A stretch of DNA of 64,000 nucleotides, from NCBI GenBank assembly GCA_965203175.1, contig OZ241867.1, forward strand, positions 1,056,001 through 1,120,000, in the 5' to 3' direction. The first letter of the stretch is position 1, and every line of letters starts with the position of its first letter. This stretch comes from Candidatus Latescibacterota bacterium (GTDB lineage Bacteria; Latescibacterota; UBA2968; UBA8231). The position numbers and the translations under genes were made by a program. Positions 5,493-22,306 of this stretch are shown here, piece after piece. The notes beneath the pieces are model-generated. The model saw only the letters and a program-made list of their open reading frames with translations. It was not told the origin of the DNA and did no database searches.

Positions 5493-8400
5493 ATGAACCA
5501 CGCGCCCCCGAGCCAGAAGGCATTCGGGCACATCCTCGGACAGCAATACACAGTTTTCGACGGGCTGGCTGGGATGTACGTGGAAGACATCTACCAAGAC
5601 CGCCACGGCCTCCTCTGGATCGGCACAACCGACGGCGGCGTAAGCCGGTTTGACGGAGCGCATTTTGACACCTTCGGCCTGTCGGACGGGCTGCCCCATC
5701 TCACCGTAACAACTATTGTCGAAAACGCGGACGGACGGCTGTTATTCGGCACGTTCGGCGGCGGGCTGGCTGCATACGACGGGCGCGGCTTTCAGGTGTA
5801 CACCACCGAACACGGGCTGCCTTCCAACGAAATATTGGGCTTACAAACCCAAGCCGACAGCTCGGTGTGGGTGCTAACCACAGCGGGAGTGGGTCGGTTC
5901 GTCGAAGGACGGTGCGTAAAATGCACGACGGAACTAGCGGGTCAGCCTCTAGGACTGGTGTACGATATGGCGACCGACTCGGCGGGCACGACTTGGCTGG
6001 CGACGCAGGGGCGCGGAGTCCTCAGCATGGATGGCCAGCGCATGAACACAGACTCAGGCGATGATCACGACGCGATGCAATTGCAGTGGCCTTGGAATTT
6101 CGCTCAAGACGCTGCTGGCAACCTGTGGATTGCTTTCCGTTACGTAGGCGCAGAAGTAGTTGTCGGTCGCTACGGTCCCGCGAGCCAACAATTCGAGAGC
6201 ATCCGCGCGGACGATGGGGCTGAGGGGGCGGAAGTCGTCCAGCATGGAACGCGCCATGTGCGCGTGGACGACCGCGATCGGCTCTGGCTGAGCCGCCGGG
6301 GCGTGCTAATGTACGACGGAGAGAAATGGCATCCTTTCTCAGCCGGCTTACCGGATGTTCACTTTTCGGATACGCGCCTGACCTACGAGGATAGCGAGGG
6401 GAATATTTGGGTGGGGCTGTGGGGTGGCGGGCTGATCTTTTGCGATCCAATCAGTATTCAGCTATACGACAAAAAAGACGGCCTACCCGACAACGAGGTT
6501 CGGTGTCTGAGGGAAGACCAAGAGGGCCGGATCTGGATTGGCACGACCGGAGGCTTAGCCTGCTTAGAGGACAGCCGGATCCGTCCGGTGGAGGTCGGTT
6601 ATACCGTCTTATCTATGGCAGTAGATCGACAAGGGCAGGTTTGGAGTGGCGGCCCCGATGGACAAGTATTCAAGTCGGTAGGCAGAGAAACCCAAGCGAT
6701 CGCGGTGATCGCAGGGGGTGTAGAAATCGAGATGTTGTTCCAAGGCCGAGAAGGGGACTTACTCGCCTGCACTTCCAAGGGGCAACTAGGACGGATCGAA
6801 GCGAACCGCTTCATCGAGATTGAGGAGCTGCAATCTCAGGACTGTAGAGTCGTGCTACAGGATCGAGAAGGCTCCTTCTGGATCGGCCTCTATGGAATAA
6901 GGCCGGCTCTATACAATTACAAGGACGGTCATCTTTGCGCGTATGACATGGCCGGCATGGAAGCCGTCGTTTATGTGAATGCTTTGTGCGAGTACCAGGA
7001 CGCGATTTGGGTGGGAACCGTCCATGGCCTTTTCGCCATTGACTACCAAGCCAAAGAGGTGCGCCAGTTTACAGTTGACCAAGGCGATCTGTCCGCCAAT
7101 GGCATTCTGGCCTTGGTGGCCGACCCGCAGCAAGCATGCCTGTGGATTGGGACCAGCGGCGGTGGGGTGCTGAAATACGACGGTCGGACCTTCCAAAGCA
7201 TCCGTCTCGGAAAGTCCGCTCTTGAGAATGTCGTCGAAGCCATTCTGCGCGATAGCCAAGGTCGGCTGTGGTTCGGAACGCGGGCCGGTCTCATTGCGTA
7301 TCAGCCCGGGGAGACGCCGCCTCGCATCCGCATCCGCCAAATCGTGGCCGGGCGCACTTTCGACGAACCCCAAGCCGTGTCCTGCCCGGATAGCACGCCC
7401 GAGATTCAGTTCCACTTCCAAGGCCTCAGCTTCAGGAGCGGGGCCGAGCAGATGCGCTACAGCCATCGGCTCGTCGGCCACGGCCCGGCCGACGAGTGGA
7501 GCGCGTTCGCGCCTGCCAATAGAGTGACGTACCAAGACGTGCCGGCTGGCCTGTTTCACTTTGAAGTGCGGACCGTAGATCGGGATGGCTTGATGTCGGA
7601 CATAGCTCGCCTAGAAGTGCGAGTGGTACCTACCCACCTCCGGCGTCTAGAGCAAATGCTGCGGGTCTCGAATCAGGGTTTTCTCAGCCAGAGCCAAGCC
7701 ATGGCACGGCTCTTCGAACAGGTCGAATCAATGGCCGAGACGGATATGACAGTGCTGGTGCTGGGCGAGACTGGAGTCGGCAAGGGAGTGCTGGCGCGGC
7801 TCCTCCACAACCTCAGTCCGCGCCAAGCGAATCCCTTTATACCGGTCAATTGCGGAGGCCTGTCCGCCGGCCTGATCGAAAGCGAACTGTTCGGCCACGA
7901 AAAGGGAGCCTTTACCAGCGCGGATGCGCAAAAGATCGGCTACTTTGAACGAGCCGATGGCGGCACTTTGTTCCTCGACGAGGTGGGCGATCTGCCCTTA
8001 GACTCCCAACGGGCCTTGCTCCACATCTTGGAGGAGGGCCACCTGACGCGCGTCGGCGGCGAGCAGTCCATCCCGGTAGATGTGCGGGTCGTCGCCGCGA
8101 CCAACAAGGACCTGGAAGAGGCTATTCAGGCGGGGACGTTCCGCGAGGATCTGTTCTATCGGCTGAGCGTACTCTCCTTAGTACTGCCGCCCCTGCGAGA
8201 GCGTCAGGAGGACATCCCGCTCTTGGCAACGCATTTTGCGAGCCGGTGTGCCGAACAGCTCGGGCGGCCAACGCCGGTTTTGGGCGAGGAGGTGGTGGCG
8301 CATTTGCAGCAATATGCGTGGCCGGGGAACGTGCGCGAGTTGGAGCACGTAATCCAGCAGGCAGTCGTGTTGGGCGACAGGGACGTCATTCAGGTGGCGG

Positions 8401-8633
8401 ACGTGCCGTTTCAGGCTGCCGAGGCGGAGCTTGCCCTGCCTGTTGAACAAGGGTTCGACTGGAGTGCTGAAGATGAGGACGAAAAGCAGCGCATTTCGGC
8501 GGCCCTCCAAGCCACCAACTGGCGGATCTATGGCCCCCGAGGGGCGGCTCGATTGTTGGGCATGGGACCGGAGAAGCTGCGGTATCGCATGCGCAAGCAT
8601 GGATTGCAACGACCAGAGAAGCCGTCGCAGTAA
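5493..8633 (+). CDS. Sigma-54-dependent activator (bEBP) with N-terminal two-component-regulator propeller repeats and Y_Y_Y domain
   Basis: Repeated DxxGxLWxGT units and GLPxN; Y_Y_Y-like segment (MRYSHRLVG...YQDVPAGLFHFEVR); GETGVGK, ESELFGHEKGAFTSA, GTLFLDEVG, FREDLFYRL, WPGNVREL; C-terminal Fis-type HTH. Confidence 0.9.
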   Translation: MNHAPPSQKAFGHILGQQYTVFDGLAGMYVEDIYQDRHGLLWIGTTDGGVSRFDGAHFDTFGLSDGLPHLTVTTIVENADGRLLFGTFGGGLAAYDGRGFQVYTTEHGLPSNEILGLQTQADSSVWVLTTAGVGRFVEGRCVKCTTELAGQPLGLVYDMATDSAGTTWLATQGRGVLSMDGQRMNTDSGDDHDAMQLQWPWNFAQDAAGNLWIAFRYVGAEVVVGRYGPASQQFESIRADDGAEGAEVVQHGTRHVRVDDRDRLWLSRRGVLMYDGEKWHPFSAGLPDVHFSDTRLTYEDSEGNIWVGLWGGGLIFCDPISIQLYDKKDGLPDNEVRCLREDQEGRIWIGTTGGLACLEDSRIRPVEVGYTVLSMAVDRQGQVWSGGPDGQVFKSVGRETQAIAVIAGGVEIEMLFQGREGDLLACTSKGQLGRIEANRFIEIEELQSQDCRVVLQDREGSFWIGLYGIRPALYNYKDGHLCAYDMAGMEAVVYVNALCEYQDAIWVGTVHGLFAIDYQAKEVRQFTVDQGDLSANGILALVADPQQACLWIGTSGGGVLKYDGRTFQSIRLGKSALENVVEAILRDSQGRLWFGTRAGLIAYQPGETPPRIRIRQIVAGRTFDEPQAVSCPDSTPEIQFHFQGLSFRSGAEQMRYSHRLVGHGPADEWSAFAPANRVTYQDVPAGLFHFEVRTVDRDGLMSDIARLEVRVVPTHLRRLEQMLRVSNQGFLSQSQAMARLFEQVESMAETDMTVLVLGETGVGKGVLARLLHNLSPRQANPFIPVNCGGLSAGLIESELFGHEKGAFTSADAQKIGYFERADGGTLFLDEVGDLPLDSQRALLHILEEGHLTRVGGEQSIPVDVRVVAATNKDLEEAIQAGTFREDLFYRLSVLSLVLPPLRERQEDIPLLATHFASRCAEQLGRPTPVLGEEVVAHLQQYAWPGNVRELEHVIQQAVVLGDRDVIQVADVPFQAAEAELALPVEQGFDWSAEDEDEKQRISAALQATNWRIYGPRGAARLLGMGPEKLRYRMRKHGLQRPEKPSQ

Positions 8634-8767: not shown

Positions 8768-8830
8768 AAAAAATCGTTCAGAGTCGTTCAAAAATCGTTC
8801 AAAAATCGTTTATTTAAACGAAAAATCGTA
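8768..8830 (+). promoter_or_regulatory. Phased repeats (AAAATCGTTC-like), candidate upstream activator sequence
   Basis: TCGTT at 8774, 8784, 8795, 8806 and TCGTA at 8826, about 130-190 bp upstream of a sigma-54 motif. Confidence 0.5.
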
Positions 8831-8904
8831 GATCAGCTTGCAACGCCATCCAATGTCTACCGCGTAGAGAAACATTTTTTTGCTATTTAAGTTCTATATT
8901 TTTC

Positions 8905-8937
8905 AATCCTTTAGGGTAACTCCTAAAGGATTTTTTT
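8905..8937 (+). terminator. Intrinsic terminator-like hairpin
   Basis: AATCCTTTAGG-gtaact-CCTAAAGGATT stem with a run of T at 8931-8937. Confidence 0.6.
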
Positions 8938-8954
8938 GTTCTCACCCCTGATAA

Positions 8955-8970
8955 TGGCACGAAATGTGCA
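8955..8970 (+). promoter_or_regulatory. Sigma-54 (-24/-12) promoter
   Basis: TGGCACGAAATGTGCA = GG-N10-GC, directly downstream of a bEBP gene and 112 bp before the next start. Confidence 0.75.
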
Positions 8971-9081: not shown

Positions 9082-10428
9082 ATGAGTTTCTTTCGTTCGA
9101 TGAAGTACCAAATCTTCGCGGCGGCAGCCCTGCTCCTCAGCGGCCCCTCTATCACCGCAGCCGCAGACCCGACCGCCCAAGCCCAGTGGAGCGAGTCCAT
9201 CCCCCTTCCCGACTTTCCTCTGATCGGTCCGGGCGAGCGCATAGAGGCATATATTGTCGATGGTCTGCTTCACGCCCGCCGCCTCGACCAAAACGACAAC
9301 CTCCTTTGGCACCTCATCCTCGCCGAAGCCGATCCAAACCAACCCCCTACCCTCGAATACGTCGGTGTTGCCGTCGAAGTGCGCCACGCCAACGGCGCGT
9401 ACTTCGTCCGCGACACCTTTCCGGGCAGCACTCTAGCCGCCCATCGGCAAAAATTGACACCGGAGGCATTCGCCAGCCTTGATACCACCGCCCGCCACAA
9501 CGGCATTGACCAAAGCGGGGCACAGAGCGGTCCTCCCACTCTGGCTCAGATTCAAAAACGTTTGCCAGAGATGATCGCCAACCTCGACTCCACCGCTCTG
9601 GATCAACTCCAAAAACTGCCGCCGGAGGCGTTCGCCAGCCTCGACCCCATCACTCTGGTTATACTCCAAAAACTGAGGCCGGAGGCGTTCGCCAACCTCG
9701 ACTCCACCGCTCTGGATCAACTCCAAAAACTGCCGCCGGCAAGTGAGAGTCGCGGCATCTTTAAATGGGAGAAGGACCGGCAGCTCTGGGTGGCCTTAGG
9801 ACCGAATATGAACCATTGGGATGCGCTCATCCGCCTGACTCCGACTGTGTTCGTACCGGAAAAGCCGGCCATTGGCCCTACTTTTTTGCGCTGGGACGAT
9901 GCCCAACTCCATGAGAGTAGCGGAGTGCTGCTCGCCCGCTATGTCTCCCCTGCCGAAGCGGACCGCAAGCAGCAAGGGCACAAATTGGTCCGGGGTGCCG
10001 TACCCTTCAACATCGAGGCCCAGCGCTGGATCAACCCCATCGGGGGCGGTGACCGCATAGGCTGGTTCCTAGGCAAAGCGGTGCTGCTGCATTTTTGGGC
10101 CACTTGGTCTCCCGAATCCATTGAGCAACTCGCCCACCACGACGAGTTATACGAAAAACACAAAGACCAAGGCCTAGTCGTTATCGCCGTCCACAGTTCC
10201 GAAGGAGCCGACGATCTGGATGCCTTCATTGCAGAACGCGGCTACACGTTGCCCATTGCAGTAGATGAAGGCGCGAGCGCACAGCGCTACGGCATCTGGA
10301 ACTTTCCCCAATCCATCCTCCTCGACCGCGACTGCCGGATAGCTTGGATCAGTCAGGAGGGCGAAGCGCCGAGCCCAGCTCAACTGAAGTACTTGCTCGA
10401 CGACATCGACACTTTTCCGGCCCACTAA
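9082..10428 (+). CDS. Exported TlpA/redoxin-fold protein with cysteine-less SxxS site (type A) and internal 19-aa repeats
   Basis: Signal-peptide-like N-terminus; unknown N-terminal domain; LHFWATWSPES, GLVVIAVH, FP cis-Pro motif; GGAGG RBS. Confidence 0.8.
   Translation: MSFFRSMKYQIFAAAALLLSGPSITAAADPTAQAQWSESIPLPDFPLIGPGERIEAYIVDGLLHARRLDQNDNLLWHLILAEADPNQPPTLEYVGVAVEVRHANGAYFVRDTFPGSTLAAHRQKLTPEAFASLDTTARHNGIDQSGAQSGPPTLAQIQKRLPEMIANLDSTALDQLQKLPPEAFASLDPITLVILQKLRPEAFANLDSTALDQLQKLPPASESRGIFKWEKDRQLWVALGPNMNHWDALIRLTPTVFVPEKPAIGPTFLRWDDAQLHESSGVLLARYVSPAEADRKQQGHKLVRGAVPFNIEAQRWINPIGGGDRIGWFLGKAVLLHFWATWSPESIEQLAHHDELYEKHKDQGLVVIAVHSSEGADDLDAFIAERGYTLPIAVDEGASAQRYGIWNFPQSILLDRDCRIAWISQEGEAPSPAQLKYLLDDIDTFPAH
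9575..9739 (+). repeat. Intragenic repeat: identical 51-bp copies 114 bp apart (two 57-bp units)
   Basis: tcgccaacctcgactccaccgctctggatcaactccaaaaactgccgccgg at 9575-9625 and 9689-9739. Confidence 0.85.
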
Positions 10429-10450
10429 TCCCTAGCGAGAGGTTTTCACC

Positions 10451-11575
10451 ATGACTTGTGCTAAGATTTTCTGCACCGGCCTCGTAGCCGGACTGATCGT
10501 CGCCGCCTCAGAAGCCGCCGCGACTCCCGCTTGGCGCGATTCGGTCGATTTACCCGCCTCAATCGGCGGTTCCGTGCAGGCGCAACTGCGCCAAGGCTGG
10601 CTGCACGCTTGGCGCGCAGATGCCGATGGCCAAGAACTGTGGCATACCATCCTCGGCCGAGCGGATCAACCGGGCCGGATTGAAAAGGTCAACCCTTTTA
10701 CCGTCGTCGTTCACCACCCAGACGGCCAGTCGCATATTCGGGACGATCTTAATCGGAACCGCCTGTCGGGGCACCGCCAAGCACTGGTGGGCGAGCCTTT
10801 CTCCGGCCTAGAAACCGAGGTCGGCGATCCGCCAGATCCAGCCCAATCCACCTACCGCTCTGCCGAAAAGCCGTCCACCCACTTGACCCGCTGGCAGCGC
10901 GACCACTGGATCTGGGCTGGATCTGGCCCCTCGGACGCCCTGCTACACACCGTCGTCCGCCTCGCCCCCATCCTGACGGTCCCCCAGCGCCAAACTTTGG
11001 AAAAACCCACGGCCAATCAGGCAATCCTCCAGTGGGATCGCGCCGAATTCACCGACGACGGCCAGACCTTTGCCATCCGCTATATCAGCCCCAAGGAAAT
11101 GGAAGTCATGCACAAGCGGCACATTAAGGATCGGGGTGCCGTGCCCTTTGAAATTGACATTGAGCGCTGGCTACAGCCCATCGCCGGCCATGAGGACTTG
11201 AATAGTCTGGCGCAGCTACGGGGTAAGGTGGTGCTGATTGATTTTTGGGCTACGTGGTGTTCGCCCTGTGTAGAAAAACTGCCCTATGTCGCCGAATTGC
11301 ACGAACGCTATCGGGACCAAGGCTTTATCGTCATTGCCCTGCATTCGGCGGATATGGCCAGCAACCTAGATGATTTTGTCGGCGAGCATGACTATCCGTT
11401 CCCCATTGCTCTCGACACGGGCGAGACCGCCCGGCGCTACGGCGTCGAGGGCATCCCCCACTACATCCTAATTGGCCGGGATAACCGCATCGCCCGTGAT
11501 GGAGAGTCATTGGAATCACGACACTCACCGCCTACTGAAGAACAAATCGAGGCACTGCTGCGGGCCGGTAGCTAA
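10451..11575 (+). CDS. Exported TlpA-like thiol-disulfide oxidoreductase (type B)
   Basis: Signal peptide; N-terminal domain homologous to type A; DFWATWCSPC, GIPHY. Confidence 0.85.
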   Translation: MTCAKIFCTGLVAGLIVAASEAAATPAWRDSVDLPASIGGSVQAQLRQGWLHAWRADADGQELWHTILGRADQPGRIEKVNPFTVVVHHPDGQSHIRDDLNRNRLSGHRQALVGEPFSGLETEVGDPPDPAQSTYRSAEKPSTHLTRWQRDHWIWAGSGPSDALLHTVVRLAPILTVPQRQTLEKPTANQAILQWDRAEFTDDGQTFAIRYISPKEMEVMHKRHIKDRGAVPFEIDIERWLQPIAGHEDLNSLAQLRGKVVLIDFWATWCSPCVEKLPYVAELHERYRDQGFIVIALHSADMASNLDDFVGEHDYPFPIALDTGETARRYGVEGIPHYILIGRDNRIARDGESLESRHSPPTEEQIEALLRAGS

Positions 11576-11784
11576 AGACGAGAACGCGATTCTTGAATGG
11601 TTTAAAGACCTATGCAGACGCTGCAATTGATCGATGTGGCCTGAGATGTGCACCACGTCGATATAGAACACACCTGAATACAAGGAGGCTTGCCGTGAAA
11701 ATGAACCCCAAAAGACCGCCTCACCAACCATCTTCATCCACCAACCGCCCCGACCTGTCGGGGACACCTCACAGGAGGCTTCAG

Positions 11785-13152
11785 ATGCGTTCCTTTCGTT
11801 CGATAAAGTACCAAATCCTCGCAGCGGTAGCCCTGCTCCTCAGCGGCCCCTACATCACCGCAGCCGCAGACCCGGCCGATCAAGTCCAATGGAGCGAGTC
11901 CGTCGACTCCGGTCCGGGCGAGCGTATAGAGGCCTATATTGTCGATGGCTTGCTGCACGCCCGCCGCCTCGACCAAAACGACATCCCCTTTTGGCACCTC
12001 ATCCTCGCCGAAGCTGACCCGCAACAACCCCCTACCCTTGAACACCTAGACGACGGCATCGAAGTGCGCCACGCCAACGGCTCGTACTTCGTCCGCGACG
12101 ACCTTGGCAACGCCTTGACCGCCCACCGGCAACGACTGGCACCAGAAGCGTTCGCCAGCCTCGATACCACCGTCCGCCAGAATGGCATTGACCGAAGCGA
12201 ACGCACTATGACTAGAGGGGGTACGGGGGGTACGAGGCTACCCACTCCGGCTGAGCTCCAGCAAGTGCCGCCGGAAGCATTTGCCAGCGTTGACCCCACC
12301 CTTCTGGCGGATCTGGTCCAAAAATTGGGGCCGGAGGCGTTCGCCAGCCTCGACACGGCCACTTTGGCTCTGATCAAAAAACGGGTGCCAGAGGCGTTCG
12401 CCAATCCCGACACCACCCTCCGCCAGAGCACCATTGACCAGAGCTCGCCCACTCGGGCTTCGCAACGCGGCATCACCAAATGGGAGAAACATGGGCAACT
12501 CTGGGTGGCCTTGGGACCGCATGCGAAAGATCATTGGGATACGCTCATCCGCCTGACTCCAACGGTGTTGGTAGTGGAAAGGCCGCGCTTCGGTATAAGA
12601 GGCAGCACGGGGTTTGTGCGCTGGGACGACGCCCAACTCTTGGATAGCGGCGATGTGCTAATAGCCGACTACATCTCCCCTGCCGATGCGGACCAGACGC
12701 AGAAAAATCACAGACTGGTCCGAGGTGCCGTACCCTTCAATATAGAAGTCCAGCGTTGGCCCAACCCCATCGCTCACGGCGACCGCCTAGGCTGGTTCCT
12801 AGGCCAAGTGGTACTGCTACACTTTTGGGCCACTTGGTCGCCCGAATCCATTGACCAACTCGCCTACTATGACGAGTTGTACAAAAAACACAAAGACGAG
12901 GGCCTCGTCGTCATCGCCATCCACAGCGCCGAAGGAGCCGACGATGTGGACGCCTTCGTCGCCAAACGCGGCTATACGTTGCCCATTGCAGTAGATGAAG
13001 GCGCGAGCGCACAGCGCTATGGCATCTGGAGTTTCCCCCAATCCGTCCTTCTTGACCGCAACTGCCGGATAGCTTGGATCAGTCAGGAGAGCGAAGCACC
13101 AAGTACCACCCAACTGAAGTACTTGCTCGACGACCCGTTCCCAACCCACTAA
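11785..13152 (+). CDS. Exported TlpA-fold protein with SxxS site (type A', paralog of 9082-10428)
   Basis: LHFWATWSPES; PEAFA repeats; same GGAGGCTTCAGATG start context as type A. Confidence 0.8.
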   Translation: MRSFRSIKYQILAAVALLLSGPYITAAADPADQVQWSESVDSGPGERIEAYIVDGLLHARRLDQNDIPFWHLILAEADPQQPPTLEHLDDGIEVRHANGSYFVRDDLGNALTAHRQRLAPEAFASLDTTVRQNGIDRSERTMTRGGTGGTRLPTPAELQQVPPEAFASVDPTLLADLVQKLGPEAFASLDTATLALIKKRVPEAFANPDTTLRQSTIDQSSPTRASQRGITKWEKHGQLWVALGPHAKDHWDTLIRLTPTVLVVERPRFGIRGSTGFVRWDDAQLLDSGDVLIADYISPADADQTQKNHRLVRGAVPFNIEVQRWPNPIAHGDRLGWFLGQVVLLHFWATWSPESIDQLAYYDELYKKHKDEGLVVIAIHSAEGADDVDAFVAKRGYTLPIAVDEGASAQRYGIWSFPQSVLLDRNCRIAWISQESEAPSTTQLKYLLDDPFPTH

Positions 13153-13174
13153 CTCCTAGCGAAAGGATTTTACC

Positions 13175-14293
13175 ATGACTTGGGCTAAAACGCTCTGCAC
13201 TGGACTCGTAGCCGGACTAATCGTCGCCGCTGAGGCCACCGCGACTCCTGCTTGGCGCGATTCGGTCGATTTACCCGCCTCAATCGGCGGTTCCGTACAA
13301 GCGCAACTGCGCCAGGGATGGCTGCACGCTTGGCGCGTGGATGCCGATGGCCAAAAACTGTGGCATACTATTCTCGGCCAAGCGGATCAACCGGGCCGAG
13401 TTGAAAAAACCAACCCCTTTACCGTGGTCGTTCACCATCCAGACAGCCAGTCGCACGTTCAGGACGATACTAACCGGAATCGTCTGTCGGGGCACCGCCA
13501 AGCACTAGTGGGCGAGCCTTTCCCCGGCTTAGAAACCGAGGTTGGAGACCCGGCAGTCCAAGCCCAATCCACGTATCAATCTGCCGACGAGCCACCCCGC
13601 ACCCACTTGACCCGCTGGCAACGCGACCACTGGGTCTGGGCCGGGTCTGGACCCTCGGACGCCTTGCTACACACCGTCGTCCGCCTCGCTCCCATCCTGA
13701 CGGTTCCCCAGCGTCAAACCTTGGAAAAGCCCACGGCTGATCAGGCAATCCTCCATTGGGACCGCGCCGAATTCACCGACGACGGCCAGACCTTTGCCGT
13801 CCGCTACATTAGCCCTAGGGAAAAGGAAATCATGCACCAGCGGCACGCTGTGGAGCGGGGTGCCGTGCCCTTTGAAATTGACATTGAGCGCTGGCTACAG
13901 CCCGTCGCCGGTTATGAGGAATCCCCCTTGAACAGTCTAGGGCAATTGCAGGGCAAGGTGGTACTGCTCGACTTTTGGGCGACGTGGTGTCCGCCCTGCG
14001 TGGAAAAACTGCCCTATGTCGCCGAGCTGTACGAGCGCTATCGGGACCAAGGCTTCATCGTCATTTCCCTGCATTCGTCGTGGCGGGCCAGCAATCTAGA
14101 TGACTTTGTCGGCGAGCATGATTATTCGTTCCCCATTGCCCTCGACACGGGCGAGACCTACCGGCGCTATGGTCTCGATCCAGGAGGGCCTATACCCCAC
14201 TACATCCTGATCAACCGGGATAACCGCATCGTCCTTGTGGACGATCTGCCTACTGAAGAGCAAATCAAGGCGCTACTGCAGGCCGGTAGCTAA
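13175..14293 (+). CDS. Exported TlpA-like thiol-disulfide oxidoreductase (type B', paralog of 10451-11575)
   Basis: DFWATWCPPC; high similarity to type B. Confidence 0.85.
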   Translation: MTWAKTLCTGLVAGLIVAAEATATPAWRDSVDLPASIGGSVQAQLRQGWLHAWRVDADGQKLWHTILGQADQPGRVEKTNPFTVVVHHPDSQSHVQDDTNRNRLSGHRQALVGEPFPGLETEVGDPAVQAQSTYQSADEPPRTHLTRWQRDHWVWAGSGPSDALLHTVVRLAPILTVPQRQTLEKPTADQAILHWDRAEFTDDGQTFAVRYISPREKEIMHQRHAVERGAVPFEIDIERWLQPVAGYEESPLNSLGQLQGKVVLLDFWATWCPPCVEKLPYVAELYERYRDQGFIVISLHSSWRASNLDDFVGEHDYSFPIALDTGETYRRYGLDPGGPIPHYILINRDNRIVLVDDLPTEEQIKALLQAGS

Positions 14294-14346: not shown

Positions 14347-14523
14347 ATGCCCCTTATGACACTACCGGAGGCCGAAAAGCGGCAAATTTTGGCGGCCCTC
14401 GAAGTCACCAACTGGCGGATCTATGGCCCGAGGGGGGCTGCCCGTTTGTTGGGCATAGGCCCGGAGAAGCTGCGGTATCGCATGCGCAAGTACGGGCTGA
14501 AACGACCCAACGCCACCTCGTAA
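14347..14523 (+). CDS. Stand-alone Fis-type HTH microprotein, 58 aa (not in the ORF track)
   Basis: MPLMTLPEAEKRQILAALEVTNWRIYGPRGAARLLGIGPEKLRYRMRKYGLKRPNATS*; AAAGGA 7 nt before ATG; 37/45 identical to the bEBP C-terminus by hand alignment. Confidence 0.7.
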   Translation: MPLMTLPEAEKRQILAALEVTNWRIYGPRGAARLLGIGPEKLRYRMRKYGLKRPNATS

Positions 14524-14594: not shown

Positions 14595-16811
14595 ATGTCA
14601 TATCGATTCCCAATCCGTTTAATCGCCGGTTCCTTAGCCGTTCTCGCCGTTTGTGCTAGCTACGGGACCGAGCAGCACTACTCGCTCCAAGACCTAGAAG
14701 CAGCAAAAGCGAAACTGCGCGAACACAATCGACTGTGGACGTTCGAGGCGGGAGCCATACTCGCCCAAGAATGGTTGAACCGCGTGCCTGAAGACGCCGA
14801 GTTACGGGCGCTCTACGCGCGTCAATTACACGGGCAGATCTACGGACCTAAAGAGATCCAAGAGCAAGCCGACGCGATCTTAGAACGGGATCCAGATAAT
14901 CCGTGGGGATTCTACGCGCAGGCGCTCGCGCTTCTGGCAGACTGGAATTATTCCGAGGCGGTCGAGCCCAGCCTGCGCGCTTGGAAGCTACTGCCCCATC
15001 CGGAGTTCGCCGCGACGCATCTTCAGGCGCTTAAGTCTAAAAGCGTGGAAGAGGGGCTGGCATTTCTGGACTTGCTGGATGCGGAAACACTCCAGCATCC
15101 CGAAGTCCTCCATGCCCGCGCGCAATTTGAGGCAAGTCGCGTGAGAGAGAATCCCGCCTATGCGGACACGAGCCTCGCTACCTTGGCCCTGCTGCGAGAG
15201 TGTTGGCCGGATCACGTCAGCGGCTACCGGCGCGCCGCGGAATATTTATGCCTAAAGAAGCCGCAGGAGGCGCTCACTCTGATCAAAACGGCGGTTCGCC
15301 TTGCGCCGGGCTCCGCCGATGTGCGTTACTGGCACTGGTGGATCCTTAACAAGACGGATATACTCCCCGCCGAGGAGCGACGCCCTGCCATTGAGGCCGG
15401 CATTGCCGAGTACCGGCAGGCCGTGCCGGAGGCCTTACACGGCCTAACCATGCTCGCCACGGTCTATAGCGAATTCCTAGAGAACGAAGAGAAGGCGGCA
15501 GAGTTTGAAGCGAAGCTGGTGGCGTTAGCTCCCGAGAGCAGACAGGCGTCGTGGGCCTACCAGCGAGAATACAAACGAATAGAGTCCGAGTTAGAGTCCG
15601 AACGTGACCGCATCGAGCGCGAGCATGGCGCGGACTCACAGAAATACCAAGACCAGCTTCGCCTCATCCGCGATGCAGCCTATCGGTTCGTAGAGAAGCC
15701 CCTCTACAACGACAGCTTCGGCCGCGAACGGGCGTACCGAAATCTATTCGAGGCCCTCGAAGCCATGAAGCCGATTCCGGCCGAGGAACTCGCCAATGCA
15801 GTTCGCGAGATGGTCCAGTGCGAGCAGCTCAACCCGCACTTCAAATACTCCATTGCTCCTATCTCAATGGCCAACCACACGCCATACGCCGAGGAGGCGG
15901 CCGAACTCGCTCGGGGTGGCATACAAGCCATACGCGATAAGGCCGAGGAGGAAGGGTGGGAGGAGAGTCGCCTAAACTACTACTTGACCGATGTCCACGA
16001 CGCCATCGGGTGGGCTAGTTACAAAGCAGGTCATGTCGAGGAAGGCCGCAACGAGCTTGAGCGGGCACTGGAGCTCTCGGAGACAAATACCAGTGCTCAC
16101 TACCACCTAGGCCAAGTATTCGAGCACATGGCGACCGAGGCCGAAGCTCAGGATGCAGCCGAGGCGTTCCGCAATTGGCTCGACAAGGCAGAGGAGTCCT
16201 ACATTGCTGGCCTTGATGCCCTAAGCTGGGGCCAACATCCCTGTCGGGAGGCGCTAGAGGCGCTGTACGAACGCCGGCACGGCTCGCGCGAAGGGCTCGA
16301 CGAGTATCTCGCCGCGTTTGTCGAACGGGAAAGACTCCAAAGACGCCAGCGGATTCTGGAATCACGGCTCGATACGGTCCGTACCTACGAACCGTTCTCC
16401 CTCGCTAAGCTCGACGGAGAGCGCGTCGATTCCGCCGATCTCGATGGCAAGATCGCCGTTCTGCATTTCTGGGGGACTTGGTGTGGCCCCTGCGTGGCAG
16501 AGCTGCCCGAGTATCATAAGTTCCACGCGCGCTATCTGGACGACCCCGCAGTGGAAGTGATCTCCATCAGCAACGACAAGTCGCGCGACGTACTCGATAG
16601 ATTCATGGTGGAGAATGAATACGATTTTACCGTCTTGGTGGACGACGGGTACGTGCAAAAGGCCGGTATCAATGGTTGGCCCACGACTTGGTTTGTCGAT
16701 GGCGACGGCTCGATCCAGTTCGTCAAAAGGGGGGGGAGTAGCGACTCGCATCTGGAGGAGGAGTTCGCATGGATCGTCGAGGCGCTGCGCGGTGCCGAGG
16801 AGAGCCCTTAG
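14595..16811 (+). CDS. Exported TPR/helical-repeat protein with C-terminal TlpA-like redoxin domain
   Basis: Signal peptide; TPR-like helices (DAIGWASYKAG, AHYHLGQ); LHFWGTWCGPC, WPTTW. Confidence 0.85.
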   Translation: MSYRFPIRLIAGSLAVLAVCASYGTEQHYSLQDLEAAKAKLREHNRLWTFEAGAILAQEWLNRVPEDAELRALYARQLHGQIYGPKEIQEQADAILERDPDNPWGFYAQALALLADWNYSEAVEPSLRAWKLLPHPEFAATHLQALKSKSVEEGLAFLDLLDAETLQHPEVLHARAQFEASRVRENPAYADTSLATLALLRECWPDHVSGYRRAAEYLCLKKPQEALTLIKTAVRLAPGSADVRYWHWWILNKTDILPAEERRPAIEAGIAEYRQAVPEALHGLTMLATVYSEFLENEEKAAEFEAKLVALAPESRQASWAYQREYKRIESELESERDRIEREHGADSQKYQDQLRLIRDAAYRFVEKPLYNDSFGRERAYRNLFEALEAMKPIPAEELANAVREMVQCEQLNPHFKYSIAPISMANHTPYAEEAAELARGGIQAIRDKAEEEGWEESRLNYYLTDVHDAIGWASYKAGHVEEGRNELERALELSETNTSAHYHLGQVFEHMATEAEAQDAAEAFRNWLDKAEESYIAGLDALSWGQHPCREALEALYERRHGSREGLDEYLAAFVERERLQRRQRILESRLDTVRTYEPFSLAKLDGERVDSADLDGKIAVLHFWGTWCGPCVAELPEYHKFHARYLDDPAVEVISISNDKSRDVLDRFMVENEYDFTVLVDDGYVQKAGINGWPTTWFVDGDGSIQFVKRGGSSDSHLEEEFAWIVEALRGAEESP

Positions 16812-17819: not shown

Positions 17820-17835
17820 TGGCACGATAGTTGCG
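17820..17835 (+). promoter_or_regulatory. Sigma-54 (-24/-12) promoter
   Basis: TGGCACGATAGTTGCG = GG-N10-GC, preceded by an AT-rich tract. Confidence 0.75.
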
Positions 17836-17885: not shown

Positions 17886-18683
17886 ATGCAACCCTTAGCC
17901 ATTCGCATCCTATCTCTCGCGCTGATCGCCATCTCCAGCGCAGCAGCCGTCGAGACCAAGTATCCCCACGGCGGCTTTGAGCCCCGCCTCGACAAACTCC
18001 AGGGCTTGCTTGACTATGTCCACACCGCGAAGAAGATCAAGGTCAAAGCCGGTCCCAAGTTGTGGCAGGCCATCGAGTCTATTCCCGTCGCGACGGGCGT
18101 CCCCATCACCCCCGCGCAAGAAGCCAACCTGCGCGACTGGCTCTACGACTTTCTCGTCGCCTTCTCCGCCTCGGGCAATGACAGCCTCGCCGCCGAGTTT
18201 TATCTCCGCGAGGGCGCCAACAACCCCACGGCCTTGAAGAACATGAAAGAGACTCTAGAGAGCTGGGGCATTCCCAAAGGCGACACGCCCTTTGACCTGT
18301 TCCGTGCCATGCACCGAACCGTACTCGACGATCAAGGCTATGCATACCGCTTTGGCAACGTCTTCTTTCGCCTCAGCACGTTCAAGGTGTTCGAGATGCA
18401 GGGGCAGTACGAGAATTATCGGTCGCACCCGATGAACGTCGTCAAGGCGAGGTTCAAATTGCAAAAAGAGGTTGAATCGGCACTGCGAGCTGGCGAGAAG
18501 CGCGTTTTCACCGACATCGCGTTTGTCACCGAAGAGCCGACCGAGTTCGCCGGGTCTCAAGGGCCAATATGCACCCCCTTCTTCTGTCGGCTAGTCTGGG
18601 ATCCAGAGCGGACAATGTGGCGCTTTGTAGAGGTCTTCTACACCTCCAAACGGCCGAATCCTTTCCTATTCTCGGCCATATAA
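17886..18683 (+). CDS. Exported hypothetical protein
   Basis: AAGGAGG RBS; signal peptide MQPLAIRILSLALIAISSAAA; no recognised family. Confidence 0.75.
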   Translation: MQPLAIRILSLALIAISSAAAVETKYPHGGFEPRLDKLQGLLDYVHTAKKIKVKAGPKLWQAIESIPVATGVPITPAQEANLRDWLYDFLVAFSASGNDSLAAEFYLREGANNPTALKNMKETLESWGIPKGDTPFDLFRAMHRTVLDDQGYAYRFGNVFFRLSTFKVFEMQGQYENYRSHPMNVVKARFKLQKEVESALRAGEKRVFTDIAFVTEEPTEFAGSQGPICTPFFCRLVWDPERTMWRFVEVFYTSKRPNPFLFSAI

Positions 18684-19170: not shown

Positions 19171-19306
19171 TGAATAAAAAAATCCCGTTTCCTTATGTTT
19201 GAATAGCGGGGCCCAAACCACCGGAGTTGCCATGTCTGTCCAGCCTACTCGCGCATCGTCTCTAAGAAGAGCCGTCTCAAAACCCGTTCTAAAGGTGTGT
19301 TGTCTT

Positions 19307-22306
19307 ATGAAGCCTCTGATCGGCAGTCTCATCGGATTGATGCTGAGCGTCAGCATCTGCACCGCGAGCGAAACCGAGCAACACTACTCGCCCCAAGAGC
19401 TAAAAGCAGCGAAATCAAAACTGCGCGAGCACAATCGGTTGTGGACGTTTGAGGAGGGAGCCATCCTCGGCCGTGAATGGACTAGCCGCGCGCCAGAGGA
19501 CGCCGAACTGCGGGCACTCTACGCGCGTCAGCTAGAGGGACAGTTGGACGGACACCGAGAGATCCAAGAGCAAGCCGACGCGATCTTGGAACGGGAGCCG
19601 GACAACCCGTGGGGACTCTACGCGCAAGCACTCGCGTTTCTGACGGACTGGCAGTATTTCGACGAGGCAGCCGAGTCTAGCTTGCGCGCTTGGAGGCTGC
19701 TGCCCCAACCGGAGTTCGCCGCAACATATCTTCAGGCGCTTCGGTTCAGAAACGCGGAAGCGGGGCTGGCATTTTTGGACTCTGTGGATGCGGAGACGCT
19801 CCAGCATCCCGAGGTCCTCCATGCCCGCGCGGAACTCGAGTACCGGGCACAGTACGCGCTGAATGATCCCGCCTATGCGGACACGAGCCTCGCTACCCTG
19901 GCCACGCTGCGAGCGCGTTGGCCCGGCCACGTCAGCGGCTACCTTAGCGCCGCGCAACAGCTACACCGGTCCGACAAGCCGCAGGAGGCACTCCCGCTGA
20001 TCGAAAAGGCTATTCGTCTCTCCCCAAGCTCCGCGGATGTGCGCTACTTGCATTGGCAGATTCTCAACGAGACGGATCAGCTCCCCGCCGACGAGCGACA
20101 CACCGCTATCGAGGCCAGCATCGCCGCCTATCGGCAGGCCGTGCCGGAGACCGTACGCGGCCTCGCCTTGCTCACCACGGCTTATAGGAATGTACTCGAG
20201 GACGAAGAGCAGGCCGCGGCGTTCGAGGCGAAGCTGATGGCGCAAGCTTCCACGAGTTGGCATGCGTCGCGGGTCCACCAAGAGAAGTTCCAACGGGAGT
20301 ACCAACGATTACAGTCCGAGTTGGAGCGCATCGTCCGCAGGGACGCGCCCGAGTACCAAAATCGGCTTCGCCTCATCTGCGACGCGGCCTATCGGTTCCT
20401 CGAAAAACCCCTCTACGACGATAGCTTCCGCGAGGGGCCGTACCGAGCGCTTCTTAGTTCCCTAAGCGCCATGAAGCCGATTCCGGCCGAAGAACTCGCC
20501 GAGGCGGTGCGCGGCTTGGTCCGGTACGAGCAACAGTCCAACCCGTACGTAACGTACGGTGCCCTTATCTTGATGACCGACCGCACGCCGTATGCCGAGG
20601 AGGCCGCCGAACTCGCTCAGGGCGTCATACAAGCCATGCTCGATAGAGCCGAAGAGGATACGTGGGGGGAGGGTCGGCTGAACTTCTACTTGGGCCTCGT
20701 CTACGACGCCCTGGGGTGGGCTCTCTACAAAGCGGGTCGCGTCGAGGAAGGCCGCAACGAGCTTGAGCGGGCACTGAAGTTTTCGCAGAGAAACACCCGT
20801 GCGCACTATCACTTAGGCCAGATGTTCGAGCACATGGCGACCGAGGCCGAGGCTCGGAATTCCGTCGAGGCAGCCGACACTTGGCTCGACAAGGCGGCGG
20901 ACGCCTATCTCGCCGGCCTCAAAGTCCGAAGCTGGGGCCCCAATCCCTGCCAAGCGGCCCTAGCCGCGCTGTACGAGCGCCGACACGGCTCGCGCGAAGG
21001 ATTCGACGAGTATCTCGCCACACTCCGCGGCGAGGACGCTCCCAGTCAGATCCGCTTAACGCCCAAGATCGACCTCCACCTCCAACCAACCCCTGTTGAG
21101 GGACTCCCCGACCGCACGCTCAACCTCCCGCCCGGCTTTAAGGTCAAACTCTTCTCCGACCAGGTAGATAAAGCCCGCTTCATGGCTTGGGACGACCAAG
21201 GCGTCCTACACGTGGCCAACATGAAGCCTCAGAGTACATGGAGCCCGGTCCCCGGCCGCCAAAGCACGGTATTGGCCTTGCCCGACAAAGACGGCGACGG
21301 TCGCGCCGACACCGTGTACATAGCGGTCAATGACCTCAACTGGCCCCACAGCATCGCCTTCTACCAAGGCGCACTCTTCGTCGCCGACGATGATGCGATC
21401 TACCGCCTCGAAGACCGCGACGCGGACGGCTTTTACGAGGAGCGCGCCGTCTTCGCCGAGGTGCCCGGTTTCATGGGTCGTCCCGTTGAGCACGTGACGC
21501 ATACGCTGGTTTTCGACGAGTCCAACGACCGGCTCTACTTCCACATTGGCTCAAGTTGCGACCTATGCCGCGAAGACGACCCGGAACGGTCCACCGTCAT
21601 GCAGATGAACGCCGACGGCACGGGTCGGCGGATCTATGCTTCAGGACTGCGCAATGCCATCGGCCTCGCCTTGCACCCGACCACCGGCGAACTCTGGGCT
21701 GCCAACACTGGGCACGACCGCGAGGGCCCAAACCTGCCGCCAGAGTGGGTCACCCCGCTCCGCGACGGCGGCTTCTATGGCTGGCCGTTGGCGTACGGGG
21801 ACAAAGTCTGGACCGATTTCTCCTCCTACGGAAGGTCCATCTTGCCGCTGACCGCTGCCGATTCGCTGTTAGTTGCCAACATGGATACTCCAGCCGTCCT
21901 CATTCCCGCCCATTTGGCACCCATGGCGCTGCATTTCTACGAGCGCGACCAGTTTCCTCCTCAGTACAAACACGCCGCGTTTGTCGCCTGCCGCGCCGGA
22001 GCTTTGGGCAACGATCCCGGCTACAAGGTCATGGTGCTCTTTGCCGAGCCGGACGGCTCCAATGCCCGCGTCGCCGATTTTCTCACCGGCTTCCGGCTCG
22101 ATTCCGACGAGGACAACGGGGATGCCGGATTGAGTGGATTATTCGGTTTTTTCTCTTTTAATTCCAGTAACGCGTGGGGTAAGCCGGTTGGGCTAACTAC
22201 GGACGAGGCCGGATACCTTTATTTGTCCAGCGACGAAGACACCCAAGCCATCTTCCGCATTGAGGCCAGCCCCGTCGAGGGTACGTGGGAAAATCCTAAA
22301 CCCTGA
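19307..22306 (+). CDS. Exported TPR protein fused to a PQQ-dependent sugar/sorbosone dehydrogenase-like propeller
   Basis: First ~570 aa paralogous to 14595; then LPPGFKVKLF, GSSCDLC, YASGLRNAIG, GGFYGWP, AHLAPMAL, WGKPVG. Confidence 0.8.
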   Translation: MKPLIGSLIGLMLSVSICTASETEQHYSPQELKAAKSKLREHNRLWTFEEGAILGREWTSRAPEDAELRALYARQLEGQLDGHREIQEQADAILEREPDNPWGLYAQALAFLTDWQYFDEAAESSLRAWRLLPQPEFAATYLQALRFRNAEAGLAFLDSVDAETLQHPEVLHARAELEYRAQYALNDPAYADTSLATLATLRARWPGHVSGYLSAAQQLHRSDKPQEALPLIEKAIRLSPSSADVRYLHWQILNETDQLPADERHTAIEASIAAYRQAVPETVRGLALLTTAYRNVLEDEEQAAAFEAKLMAQASTSWHASRVHQEKFQREYQRLQSELERIVRRDAPEYQNRLRLICDAAYRFLEKPLYDDSFREGPYRALLSSLSAMKPIPAEELAEAVRGLVRYEQQSNPYVTYGALILMTDRTPYAEEAAELAQGVIQAMLDRAEEDTWGEGRLNFYLGLVYDALGWALYKAGRVEEGRNELERALKFSQRNTRAHYHLGQMFEHMATEAEARNSVEAADTWLDKAADAYLAGLKVRSWGPNPCQAALAALYERRHGSREGFDEYLATLRGEDAPSQIRLTPKIDLHLQPTPVEGLPDRTLNLPPGFKVKLFSDQVDKARFMAWDDQGVLHVANMKPQSTWSPVPGRQSTVLALPDKDGDGRADTVYIAVNDLNWPHSIAFYQGALFVADDDAIYRLEDRDADGFYEERAVFAEVPGFMGRPVEHVTHTLVFDESNDRLYFHIGSSCDLCREDDPERSTVMQMNADGTGRRIYASGLRNAIGLALHPTTGELWAANTGHDREGPNLPPEWVTPLRDGGFYGWPLAYGDKVWTDFSSYGRSILPLTAADSLLVANMDTPAVLIPAHLAPMALHFYERDQFPPQYKHAAFVACRAGALGNDPGYKVMVLFAEPDGSNARVADFLTGFRLDSDEDNGDAGLSGLFGFFSFNSSNAWGKPVGLTTDEAGYLYLSSDEDTQAIFRIEASPVEGTWENPKP

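Follow-up and report, generated by a model that had tools for sequence, protein, structure and literature searches.

Why would a bacterium keep, directly beside an exported thioredoxin-like protein with an intact CxxC motif, a paralog in which both cysteines of that motif have been replaced by serine, and do so twice in a row? The question is raised by four genes, here called A, B, A' and B', in a 64,000-nucleotide (nt) stretch of contig OZ241867.1 from a Candidatus Latescibacterota genome. This full stretch is referred to as the window, and all coordinates of the features below refer to it.

9082-10428, + strand: A, 448 amino acids (aa); exported, cysteine-less (WATWSPES), N-terminal domain (N-domain) plus TlpA-like thioredoxin fold
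10451-11575, + strand: B, 374 aa; exported, N-domain plus TlpA/ResA-like thioredoxin domain, CSPC
11785-13152, + strand: A', 455 aa; second cysteine-less copy, WATWSPES, Cys427
13175-14293, + strand: B', 372 aa; second active-type copy, CPPC

We are highly confident that selection maintains A and A', although both are catalytically dead, and that they are paralogs of the CxxC proteins next to them, B and B'; that all four are exported and combine a two-lobed all-beta N-domain with a fold of the TlpA/ResA type; that A and B were copied together; and that the pair resides in a variable island with a conserved sigma-54 promoter and an adjacent gene for a sigma-54 enhancer-binding protein (EBP). 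Rather than decaying, A probably assists its active neighbour in a non-catalytic way, and we regard the explanation as a whole, including this partner role of A, as about evenly poised between right and wrong. Pairs of a pseudoenzyme and an active paralog are well studied for kinases and proteases and hardly at all for oxidoreductases of the bacterial envelope, and the A-B system is suited for asking what a thioredoxin fold does after its redox chemistry has ended. It is a clean test system because selection acts on the dead partner, because A-B pairs can be tallied from genome to genome, and because cysteines have been lost several times independently.

The four exported paralogs follow each other in the order A-B-A'-B', with a spacer of 22 nt both from A to B and from A' to B'. 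A and A' are 71% identical and B and B' 84%, while A shares 37% of its residues with B and 38% with B'. Both A and A' read WATWSPES, with the Ser codon TCT at 10108 in the former and TCG at 12838 in the latter, and B and B' read WATWCSPC and WATWCPPC, respectively; the motif, codon and gene-order observations of a preliminary description of the locus were borne out in every detail. The loop assigned from the alignment as carrying the cis-Pro reads FPQS in A and A' and IPHY in B and B', and its proline occupies one invariant column throughout the four proteins and both lineages. The Pfam families Redoxin, AhpC-TSA and Thioredoxin_8 match all four proteins over the last ~130 residues only, and each protein begins with a hydrophobic signal-like segment, as judged by simple hydropathy rather than by a dedicated predictor. 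The single Cys of A is at position 418. For A', the mechanical open reading frame (ORF) begins at a TTG at 11593, and the start was assigned to the ATG at 11785 because of the AGGAGG ribosome-binding site found there and the alignment with the N-terminus of A. The four-protein pattern is far beyond chance, since the same proteins recur in 17 of the 31 genomes that made up our survey of the genus. No RNA run is among the sequencing runs listed as containing the stretch, and some of the DNA runs are labelled as sponge metagenome, one of which (X3) contains 0.65 of its sequence words.

Maintenance of the cysteine-less state

A search with A returned 111 A-type clusters (formed at 90% identity, ~100 of them full-length) at 61% identity or more, including the window's own two, together with two distant CxxC proteins that aligned over the thioredoxin part only. 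The motif could be read in 98 of the 111 clusters, the others being 12 fragments and one spurious match of the regular expression. None of these 98 has a Cys in the motif, which reads SPES in 89 clusters, APES in three, SPEA in two and SSES, SLES, SPEV or SSEA in one each, and the motif Glu (Glu345) is kept in all of them. The preliminary description had taken SxxS to be older than the A/A' duplication and maintained ever since, and had considered that close homologs of A might instead mostly keep CxxC; the count of zero in 98, together with the low substitution ratios of the thioredoxin domain, upholds the former view.

These ratios of nonsynonymous to synonymous change (dN/dS, omega) were calculated by the Nei-Gojobori method for A against A' and five orthologues. 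In the six comparisons, omega of A ranged from 0.24 to 0.41 over the whole gene, and was thus not near 1, the value that the preliminary description would have read as loss of constraint; it ranged from 0.13 to 0.30 in the thioredoxin domain (6/6 comparisons) and from 0.41 to 0.90 in a repeat insert described below. The best-conserved part of A is the thioredoxin domain. For B, omega was 0.19-0.33 overall and 0.10-0.31 in the thioredoxin domain, and because the ranges overlap, the dead domain of A is as constrained as the live one of B. The reading frame is intact in 29 of 30 A copies, the remaining copy, from genome G006, having an internal TGA.

All B-family rows of the B alignment retain both cysteines. 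At 36 aligned sites, residues are at least 95% conserved within each of the two lineages, yet differ between A and B, and D264, C270, P272, C273, E325 and Y338 of B correspond to H, S, E, S, A and S in A. A dead relative from outside the genus, P0158, has the Ala and the last Ser of A, as well as an acidic residue (Asp) at the third motif position. To judge from these alignments, the area around the former active site of A is a rebuilt surface and not an eroded one.

The dead lineage can also be followed back in a 39-row maximum-likelihood tree, in which branches are long and deep nodes provisional. Here, the A types group with P0158 (387 residues, motif QQDS), a dead sister lineage at 38% identity, with support of 100/99 (98.4 in a second tree), and the B types group with the CxxC proteins P0157 and P0164. 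As A goes with the dead P0158 and B with P0157 and P0164, the A/B split is older than the genus, and the supposed antiquity of the dead lineage is confirmed by its sister. The next branch of the tree consists of a C type and of proteins from the related genus g19, which has C-like CxxC proteins only. The C type (~372 residues, CTPC) is found in 6 of the 31 genomes, apart from the A-B locus, and adjoins a homologue of the island gene orf17886 (see below) at both loci inspected for this, those of G012 and G021, and a pair of extracytoplasmic function (ECF) sigma and anti-sigma factors in G023. The window's pair types 1 and 2 are common to G000 and G021, and since both have orthologues in G021, A and B were duplicated together before these species separated.

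In the predicted structure of B (predicted local distance difference test score, pLDDT, 75.8), an all-beta N-terminal region with two lobes (residues 28-108 and 133-224) connected by a disordered linker is followed by a TlpA-like fold matching 3gl3 (Z 18.6, root-mean-square deviation (rmsd) 1.8, 133 residues aligned), ResA 2f9s (Z 16.6) and TlpA 1jfu (Z 14.7). The model of A is weak overall (pLDDT 60) and confident in its thioredoxin part, where residues 303-445 match 3eyt (Z 16.4, rmsd 2.8, 141 aligned), ResA 2f9s (Z 14.4) and TlpA (Z 13.9). The fold searches used the full-length models of A and B, and every listed match falls on the thioredoxin domain.

The proteins resemble those of the TlpA/ResA/CcmG (DsbE) type in the fold and the Redoxin/AhpC-TSA matches of their C-terminal ~135 residues, in being exported, and in a cis-Pro loop that, by sequence position only, is present in all four. 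The WxxWCxPC motif of that type is found in B and B' and not in A and A'. For a DsbD/CcdA-type electron donor, the genome holds one DsbD-type transporter (DsbD_TM, 78 bits, above cut-off), far from the A-B locus. Unlike TlpA, ResA and CcmG, A and B carry an added ~220-residue all-beta N-terminal domain, A is without both cysteines, and neither A nor B reaches the curated NCBIfam cut-offs of ResA, TlpA, DsbE or StoA, the best NCBIfam scores being 56.4 bits for A and 83.6 bits for B against a ResA cut-off of 170. Also unlike the settings of those proteins, no genes for the maturation of cytochrome c or Cu centres are found near the A-B locus.

The rapidly changing part of A is an insert of repeated units.

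9575-9739, + strand: 57-base-pair (bp) tandem repeat (2.9 copies) inside A; 19-residue LxPEAFAxLDxxxLxxLQK units

These units, encoded in part by the 57-bp repeat, enlarge the linker that connects the beta subdomains and are predicted to be helical (pLDDT ~80). The insert, seen also in locus L024 (12241-13188), is a tandem expansion of a segment that is single-copy in B and C (L.PE.F..LDT). Its copy number varies among A copies, copy A1 of G021 being longer, and with omega of up to 0.9 it evolves nearly neutrally.

Some further observations concern the sequences of the copies themselves. In the signal-peptide regions of A and A' (9082-9171 and 11785-11874), the synonymous divergence (dS) is 0.09, compared to 0.44 for the whole genes, which reflects either homogenisation of the 5' ends by gene conversion or a constraint at the RNA level. 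The dipeptide within the B-type CxxC differs among copies in the window and in loci L024-L028 (CSPC, CPPC, CNPC and CQPC), a variation that would give tandem B copies different redox properties. Finally, P0107, a 253-residue ORF present on 20 contigs, is an A/B chimera in which the second lobe of the A N-domain and the greater part of the dead A thioredoxin domain precede a shared DDG, after which follow the end of the B N-domain and an active B domain with CSLC; such a chimera stems either from recombination of the genes or from a join made in assembly.

Pairing of A with B and the proposed role of A

Within the genus, A and B are both present in the same 17 of 31 genomes, and intact copies of both are absent from the other 14; one further genome has only an 85-residue relic of B. 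We counted 30 A copies, of which 29 are decidable and one lies at a contig edge. B directly follows A in 26 of the 29 (two of these B genes being contig-end fragments), and wherever this could be judged, no intact B lacks an upstream A. The arrays hold one to three A-B pairs. The idea that SxxS homologs always sit upstream of a CxxC paralog thus stood as far as the 26 copies and the co-occurrence in 17 of 17 genomes are concerned, and fell short in three copies that have no following B.

A sequence of events that would account for these patterns starts from the duplication of an ancestral CxxC family member, one copy of which may then have lost both cysteines and rebuilt its surface at the former active site (H337, S343, E345, S346, A398, W406, Q410 and S411). 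A would then serve as a non-catalytic partner of B, presenting or holding a client or tuning B, possibly with the homologous N-domains as the surface over which A and B pair. Thiol-disulfide exchange would fall to B, which would draw its electrons from the one DsbD/CcdA-type transporter that the genome has, and the operon may be switched on when the propeller of the EBP senses a cytoplasmic signal.

The nearest precedent for such an arrangement is TraF/TrbB, the likeness being one of working logic only. In F-like type IV secretion systems, TraF, which has no CXXC, is reported to coexist with its active CXXC relative TrbB and not to be seen alone (PMC11315126). The two cases share a periplasmic pair of dead and active thioredoxin folds, and in our survey A was likewise never found in a genome without B (17/17). 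The differences lie in the neighbourhood, which for A-B consists of the EBP, TPR proteins, PIN, an aldo-keto reductase and a GH99-like protein and not of a conjugative cluster, in the added domains, and in the adjacency of A and B and their duplication as a unit. In protein disulfide isomerase (PDI), the redox-dead b and b' thioredoxin folds act as client-binding modules beside the active a domains. A similar combination occurs in P0197, a distant family member in which one polypeptide carries a dead domain together with an active one, whereas the folds of the window are separate gene products and belong to the bacterial envelope and not to the endoplasmic reticulum. Among the papers listed in a literature search on periplasmic TlpA-like proteins with SXXS, none deals with a dead/active TlpA pair.

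Several observations weigh against a partnership of A and B. Three of the 29 A copies precede another gene of the island, namely the TPR-thioredoxin gene in G003, orf17886 in G013 (third A) and the TPR-SGDH gene in G010 (second A). In G009, the A is of type 1 and its B of type 2, which means that partners can be exchanged or that the pairing lacks specificity. The same N-domain is also found in CxxC proteins that have no dead partner, namely the C type of 6 of 31 genomes and the proteins of genus g19, and a nine-cluster dead clade of Planctomycetota has no second family member in its flanks at any of six loci, with thioredoxin-type Pfam families in none of 28 neighbouring ORFs at the five loci scanned. 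Tandem duplicates, moreover, stay adjacent for some time without a functional tie. Outside the genus, the evidence in favour of a pairing is indirect: the cluster of the dead P0158 and that of the CxxC proteins P0164/P0303 share a longest-contig value of 50,997, and pieces of both are on 3,436-base contigs, so that a co-location of P0158 and P0303 is suggested by equal contig sizes. A contig of 4,835 is likewise recorded for P0180 (CGSS) as well as for P0306 (CGPC). Searches of genome contigs and metagenome contigs with P0158 found no relative, and the scan with P0303 gave only distant matches, to the thioredoxin domain. The word "obligate", which the preliminary description had used for the pair, is not supported in view of the A copies that lack a following B, the lone CxxC relatives and the lone dead clade of Planctomycetota (6/6).

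The main rival to the partner role is that A, a member of the same regulon, does binding or sensing work independently of B and without redox activity, for instance as a holdase or as a ligand receptor in which the remodelled groove and the helical insert are put to use, and that it adjoins B merely through tandem duplication and a shared promoter. We consider this possible, if on the unlikely side. The A copies without a following B and the solitary dead proteins of Planctomycetota agree with it, as do the residues that A conserves on its own around the dead site, and the presence of the same module on the outer side of membrane proteins of the ECF-sigma, BlaR1-like and Ser/Thr-kinase kinds fits sensing or docking. 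It sits less well with the old split between A and B (37% identity), across which the 22-nt spacing and the order nevertheless persist in 26 of 29 copies, with the lack of any genome among the 17 that has A without B, and with the fusion of dead and active thioredoxin domains in P0197.

That A instead carries out a different chemistry appears rather improbable to us. Such a chemistry might use Cys418, in a mixed disulfide or a covalent dimer, or the Glu and Ser of SPES, in binding a metal or ligand, and it would agree with the presence of Cys418 in 96% of A-type sequences and with that of Glu345 in 98 of 98 clusters, where P0158 has Asp. On the other hand, P0158 has Met at the position of Cys418, three full-length A-type clusters (P0039, P0046 and P0047) are without this Cys, the first Ser is Ala in three clusters, and no family with such chemistry was matched in Pfam or NCBIfam; by predicted secondary structure, Cys418 would belong to the hairpin that follows the cis-Pro strand, at a distance from the former active site. 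The loss of both catalytic cysteines and the internal TGA of the G006 copy could also be taken to mean that A and A' are duplicates of B decaying into pseudogenes, to which we give next to no probability. Decay is excluded by the selection and conservation data, that is, by omega of 0.24-0.41 for the whole gene and 0.13-0.30 for the thioredoxin domain, by intact frames in 29 of 30 copies, by the ~100 full-length clusters at 90% identity and by a dead sister lineage at 38% identity. A maintained, non-catalytic partner of B remains our preferred account of A.

The N-terminal domain and its wider family

The ~220-residue all-beta N-terminal domain common to A, B, A' and B' has no match in Pfam, NCBIfam or PDB sequences, in line with its having been called unrecognised at the outset. 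In a profile search against PDB sequences the best E-value was 1.3, the ESM Atlas gave no usable match, and Pfam at E ≤ 5 gave scattered single matches only. The N-terminal motifs that had been singled out in the four proteins (LHAxR, LWHxIL, GP, RLxP and RGAVPF) correspond to invariant or near-invariant columns of the alignment.

A profile of the domain, built from 17 sequences and searched against 1.84 billion representatives, matched 141 clusters at E ≤ 1e-3, of which 60 reach ≤ 1e-10 and 12 reach ≤ 1e-30. In a Pfam scan of 44 longer members, AhpC-TSA, Redoxin or Thioredoxin_8 followed the N-domain in 38, and no Pfam family fell on the N-domain itself in any of the 44. The architecture, which had seemed peculiar to the locus, is accordingly that of an unnamed family of 141 representative clusters, to which the A and B proteins belong by having an N-domain followed by a Redoxin-type domain. 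A domain of ~220 residues in at least 141 sequence clusters is thus described by no curated library.

Degenerate motifs are not restricted to A. Among 63 representatives of at least 300 residues with an aligned thioredoxin motif, 43 have CxxC, seven the first Cys only and 13 neither. In two quick trees, CxxC members surround the degenerate forms, which fall into four or more distinct and well-supported clades, so the loss of Cys has been recurrent in the family of N-domain plus TlpA-like proteins. In P0197, the N-domain is followed by a dead and then by an active thioredoxin domain in a single chain. No fused A-type proteins of at least 785 residues were found, which is weak evidence.

The module of N-domain and thioredoxin domain is also fused to three kinds of membrane protein: ECF sigma factors (P0177, P0223, P0233, P0251 and P0305), BlaR1-type M56 proteins (P0171, and P0226, in which only the N-domain matched) and Ser/Thr kinases (P0249 and P0289). 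P0305 was outside the Pfam scan and is counted from its source name and a cluster shared with P0182. In eight of these nine representatives (P0226 being the exception), the module follows a hydrophobic segment and makes up the outer, C-terminal part of the protein, and on sequence grounds it seems to face outward and to serve in sensing or docking.

A bolder view, which we put forward with considerable doubt, is that the N-domain and TlpA-like part together form an undescribed extracytoplasmic recognition module that has split into enzyme and pseudoenzyme at least four times. A and B would form heterodimers via their N-domains, the dead subunit would set the specificity for a client or signal, with the repeat insert as a variable arm, and the same module would be the sensor end of the ECF-sigma, BlaR1-like and Ser/Thr-kinase membrane proteins. 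If true, this would be a counterpart of the a/b logic of PDI in the bacterial envelope, wired into signalling.

The surrounding island and its regulation

The genes and elements around the A-B array are given below in the order of the window.

5493-8633, + strand: EBP gene, 1046 aa; Reg_prop propeller, AAA+ Sigma54_activat, HTH_8
8768-8848, + strand: tandem TCGTTCAAAA-type repeats plus an inverted copy; 3-6 copies, kept in 6/6 aligned genomes
8905-8942, + strand: 12-bp stem-loop followed by a T run, terminator-like, after the EBP gene; kept in 6/6 aligned genomes
8955-8969, + strand: sigma-54 promoter-like element TGGCACGAAATGTGC; -24 GG, -12 GC, one mismatch, 113 nt upstream of A
14368-14523, + strand: relic of an EBP 3' end (helix-turn-helix (HTH) region), 156 nt, upstream of the TPR-thioredoxin gene
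14595-16811, + strand: TPR-thioredoxin gene, 738 aa; exported TPR protein with a C-terminal CGPC TlpA-like thioredoxin domain (Pfam), variable island member
17820-17834, + strand: perfect sigma-54 consensus TGGCACGATAGTTGC, no mismatches, upstream of orf17886
17886-18683, + strand: orf17886, exported 265-aa protein with a CTPFFC cysteine pair
19199-22306, + strand: TPR-SGDH gene, TPR plus glucose/sorbosone-dehydrogenase-like propeller (Pfam GSDH, DUF7133, TPR), conserved downstream border of the island

The EBP is likely the regulator of the A-B operon. Its Pfam matches are Sigma54_activat (4.5e-67), Reg_prop (7.1e-41), which forms the N-terminal sensor, and HTH_8 (1.2e-6). In six of the seven loci of relatives that were read from the EBP to the TPR-SGDH gene, it is directly upstream of the first A; the seventh, in G011, has the EBP and no A. 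Between the EBP gene and A, the promoter core TGGCAC.AAATGTGC (TGGCAC-N5-TGTGC) is invariant in 6/6 aligned genomes, and the TCGTTCAAAA-type repeats are a candidate enhancer (upstream activating sequence, UAS) for the EBP. Over the whole window, the sigma-54 pattern is not above chance (64 found compared to 70 expected at ≤ 2 mismatches), and the promoter upstream of A is, therefore, called from its position and conservation and not from the window-wide count.

The relic upstream of the TPR-thioredoxin gene matches residues 995-1045 of the EBP with 76% identity over 51 residues (tblastn, E 1.4e-25) and, as DNA, the 3' end of the intact EBP gene with 86% identity over 140 nt, which suggests that the island was assembled by past recombination between two EBP-led loci. 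The TPR-thioredoxin gene itself comes directly after an A copy in G003, and after the EBP and a short B relic in G011.

No Pfam or NCBIfam family matches orf17886, homologues of which adjoin A, B or C-type genes in G010, G012, G013, G021 and G022. Its CTPFFC/CxxxxC motif is kept in five of six copies from relatives, and the protein may be a client of the CxxC proteins.

Across the relatives, the island has a conserved frame in which an aldo-keto reductase and the sigma-54 EBP precede, and the TPR-dehydrogenase-like and GH99-like genes follow, a variable set drawn from A, B, orf17886, the TPR-thioredoxin gene and a PIN gene. The products of 14595-16811 and 19199-22306 are both exported, and both have a paralogous TPR domain of ~600 residues.

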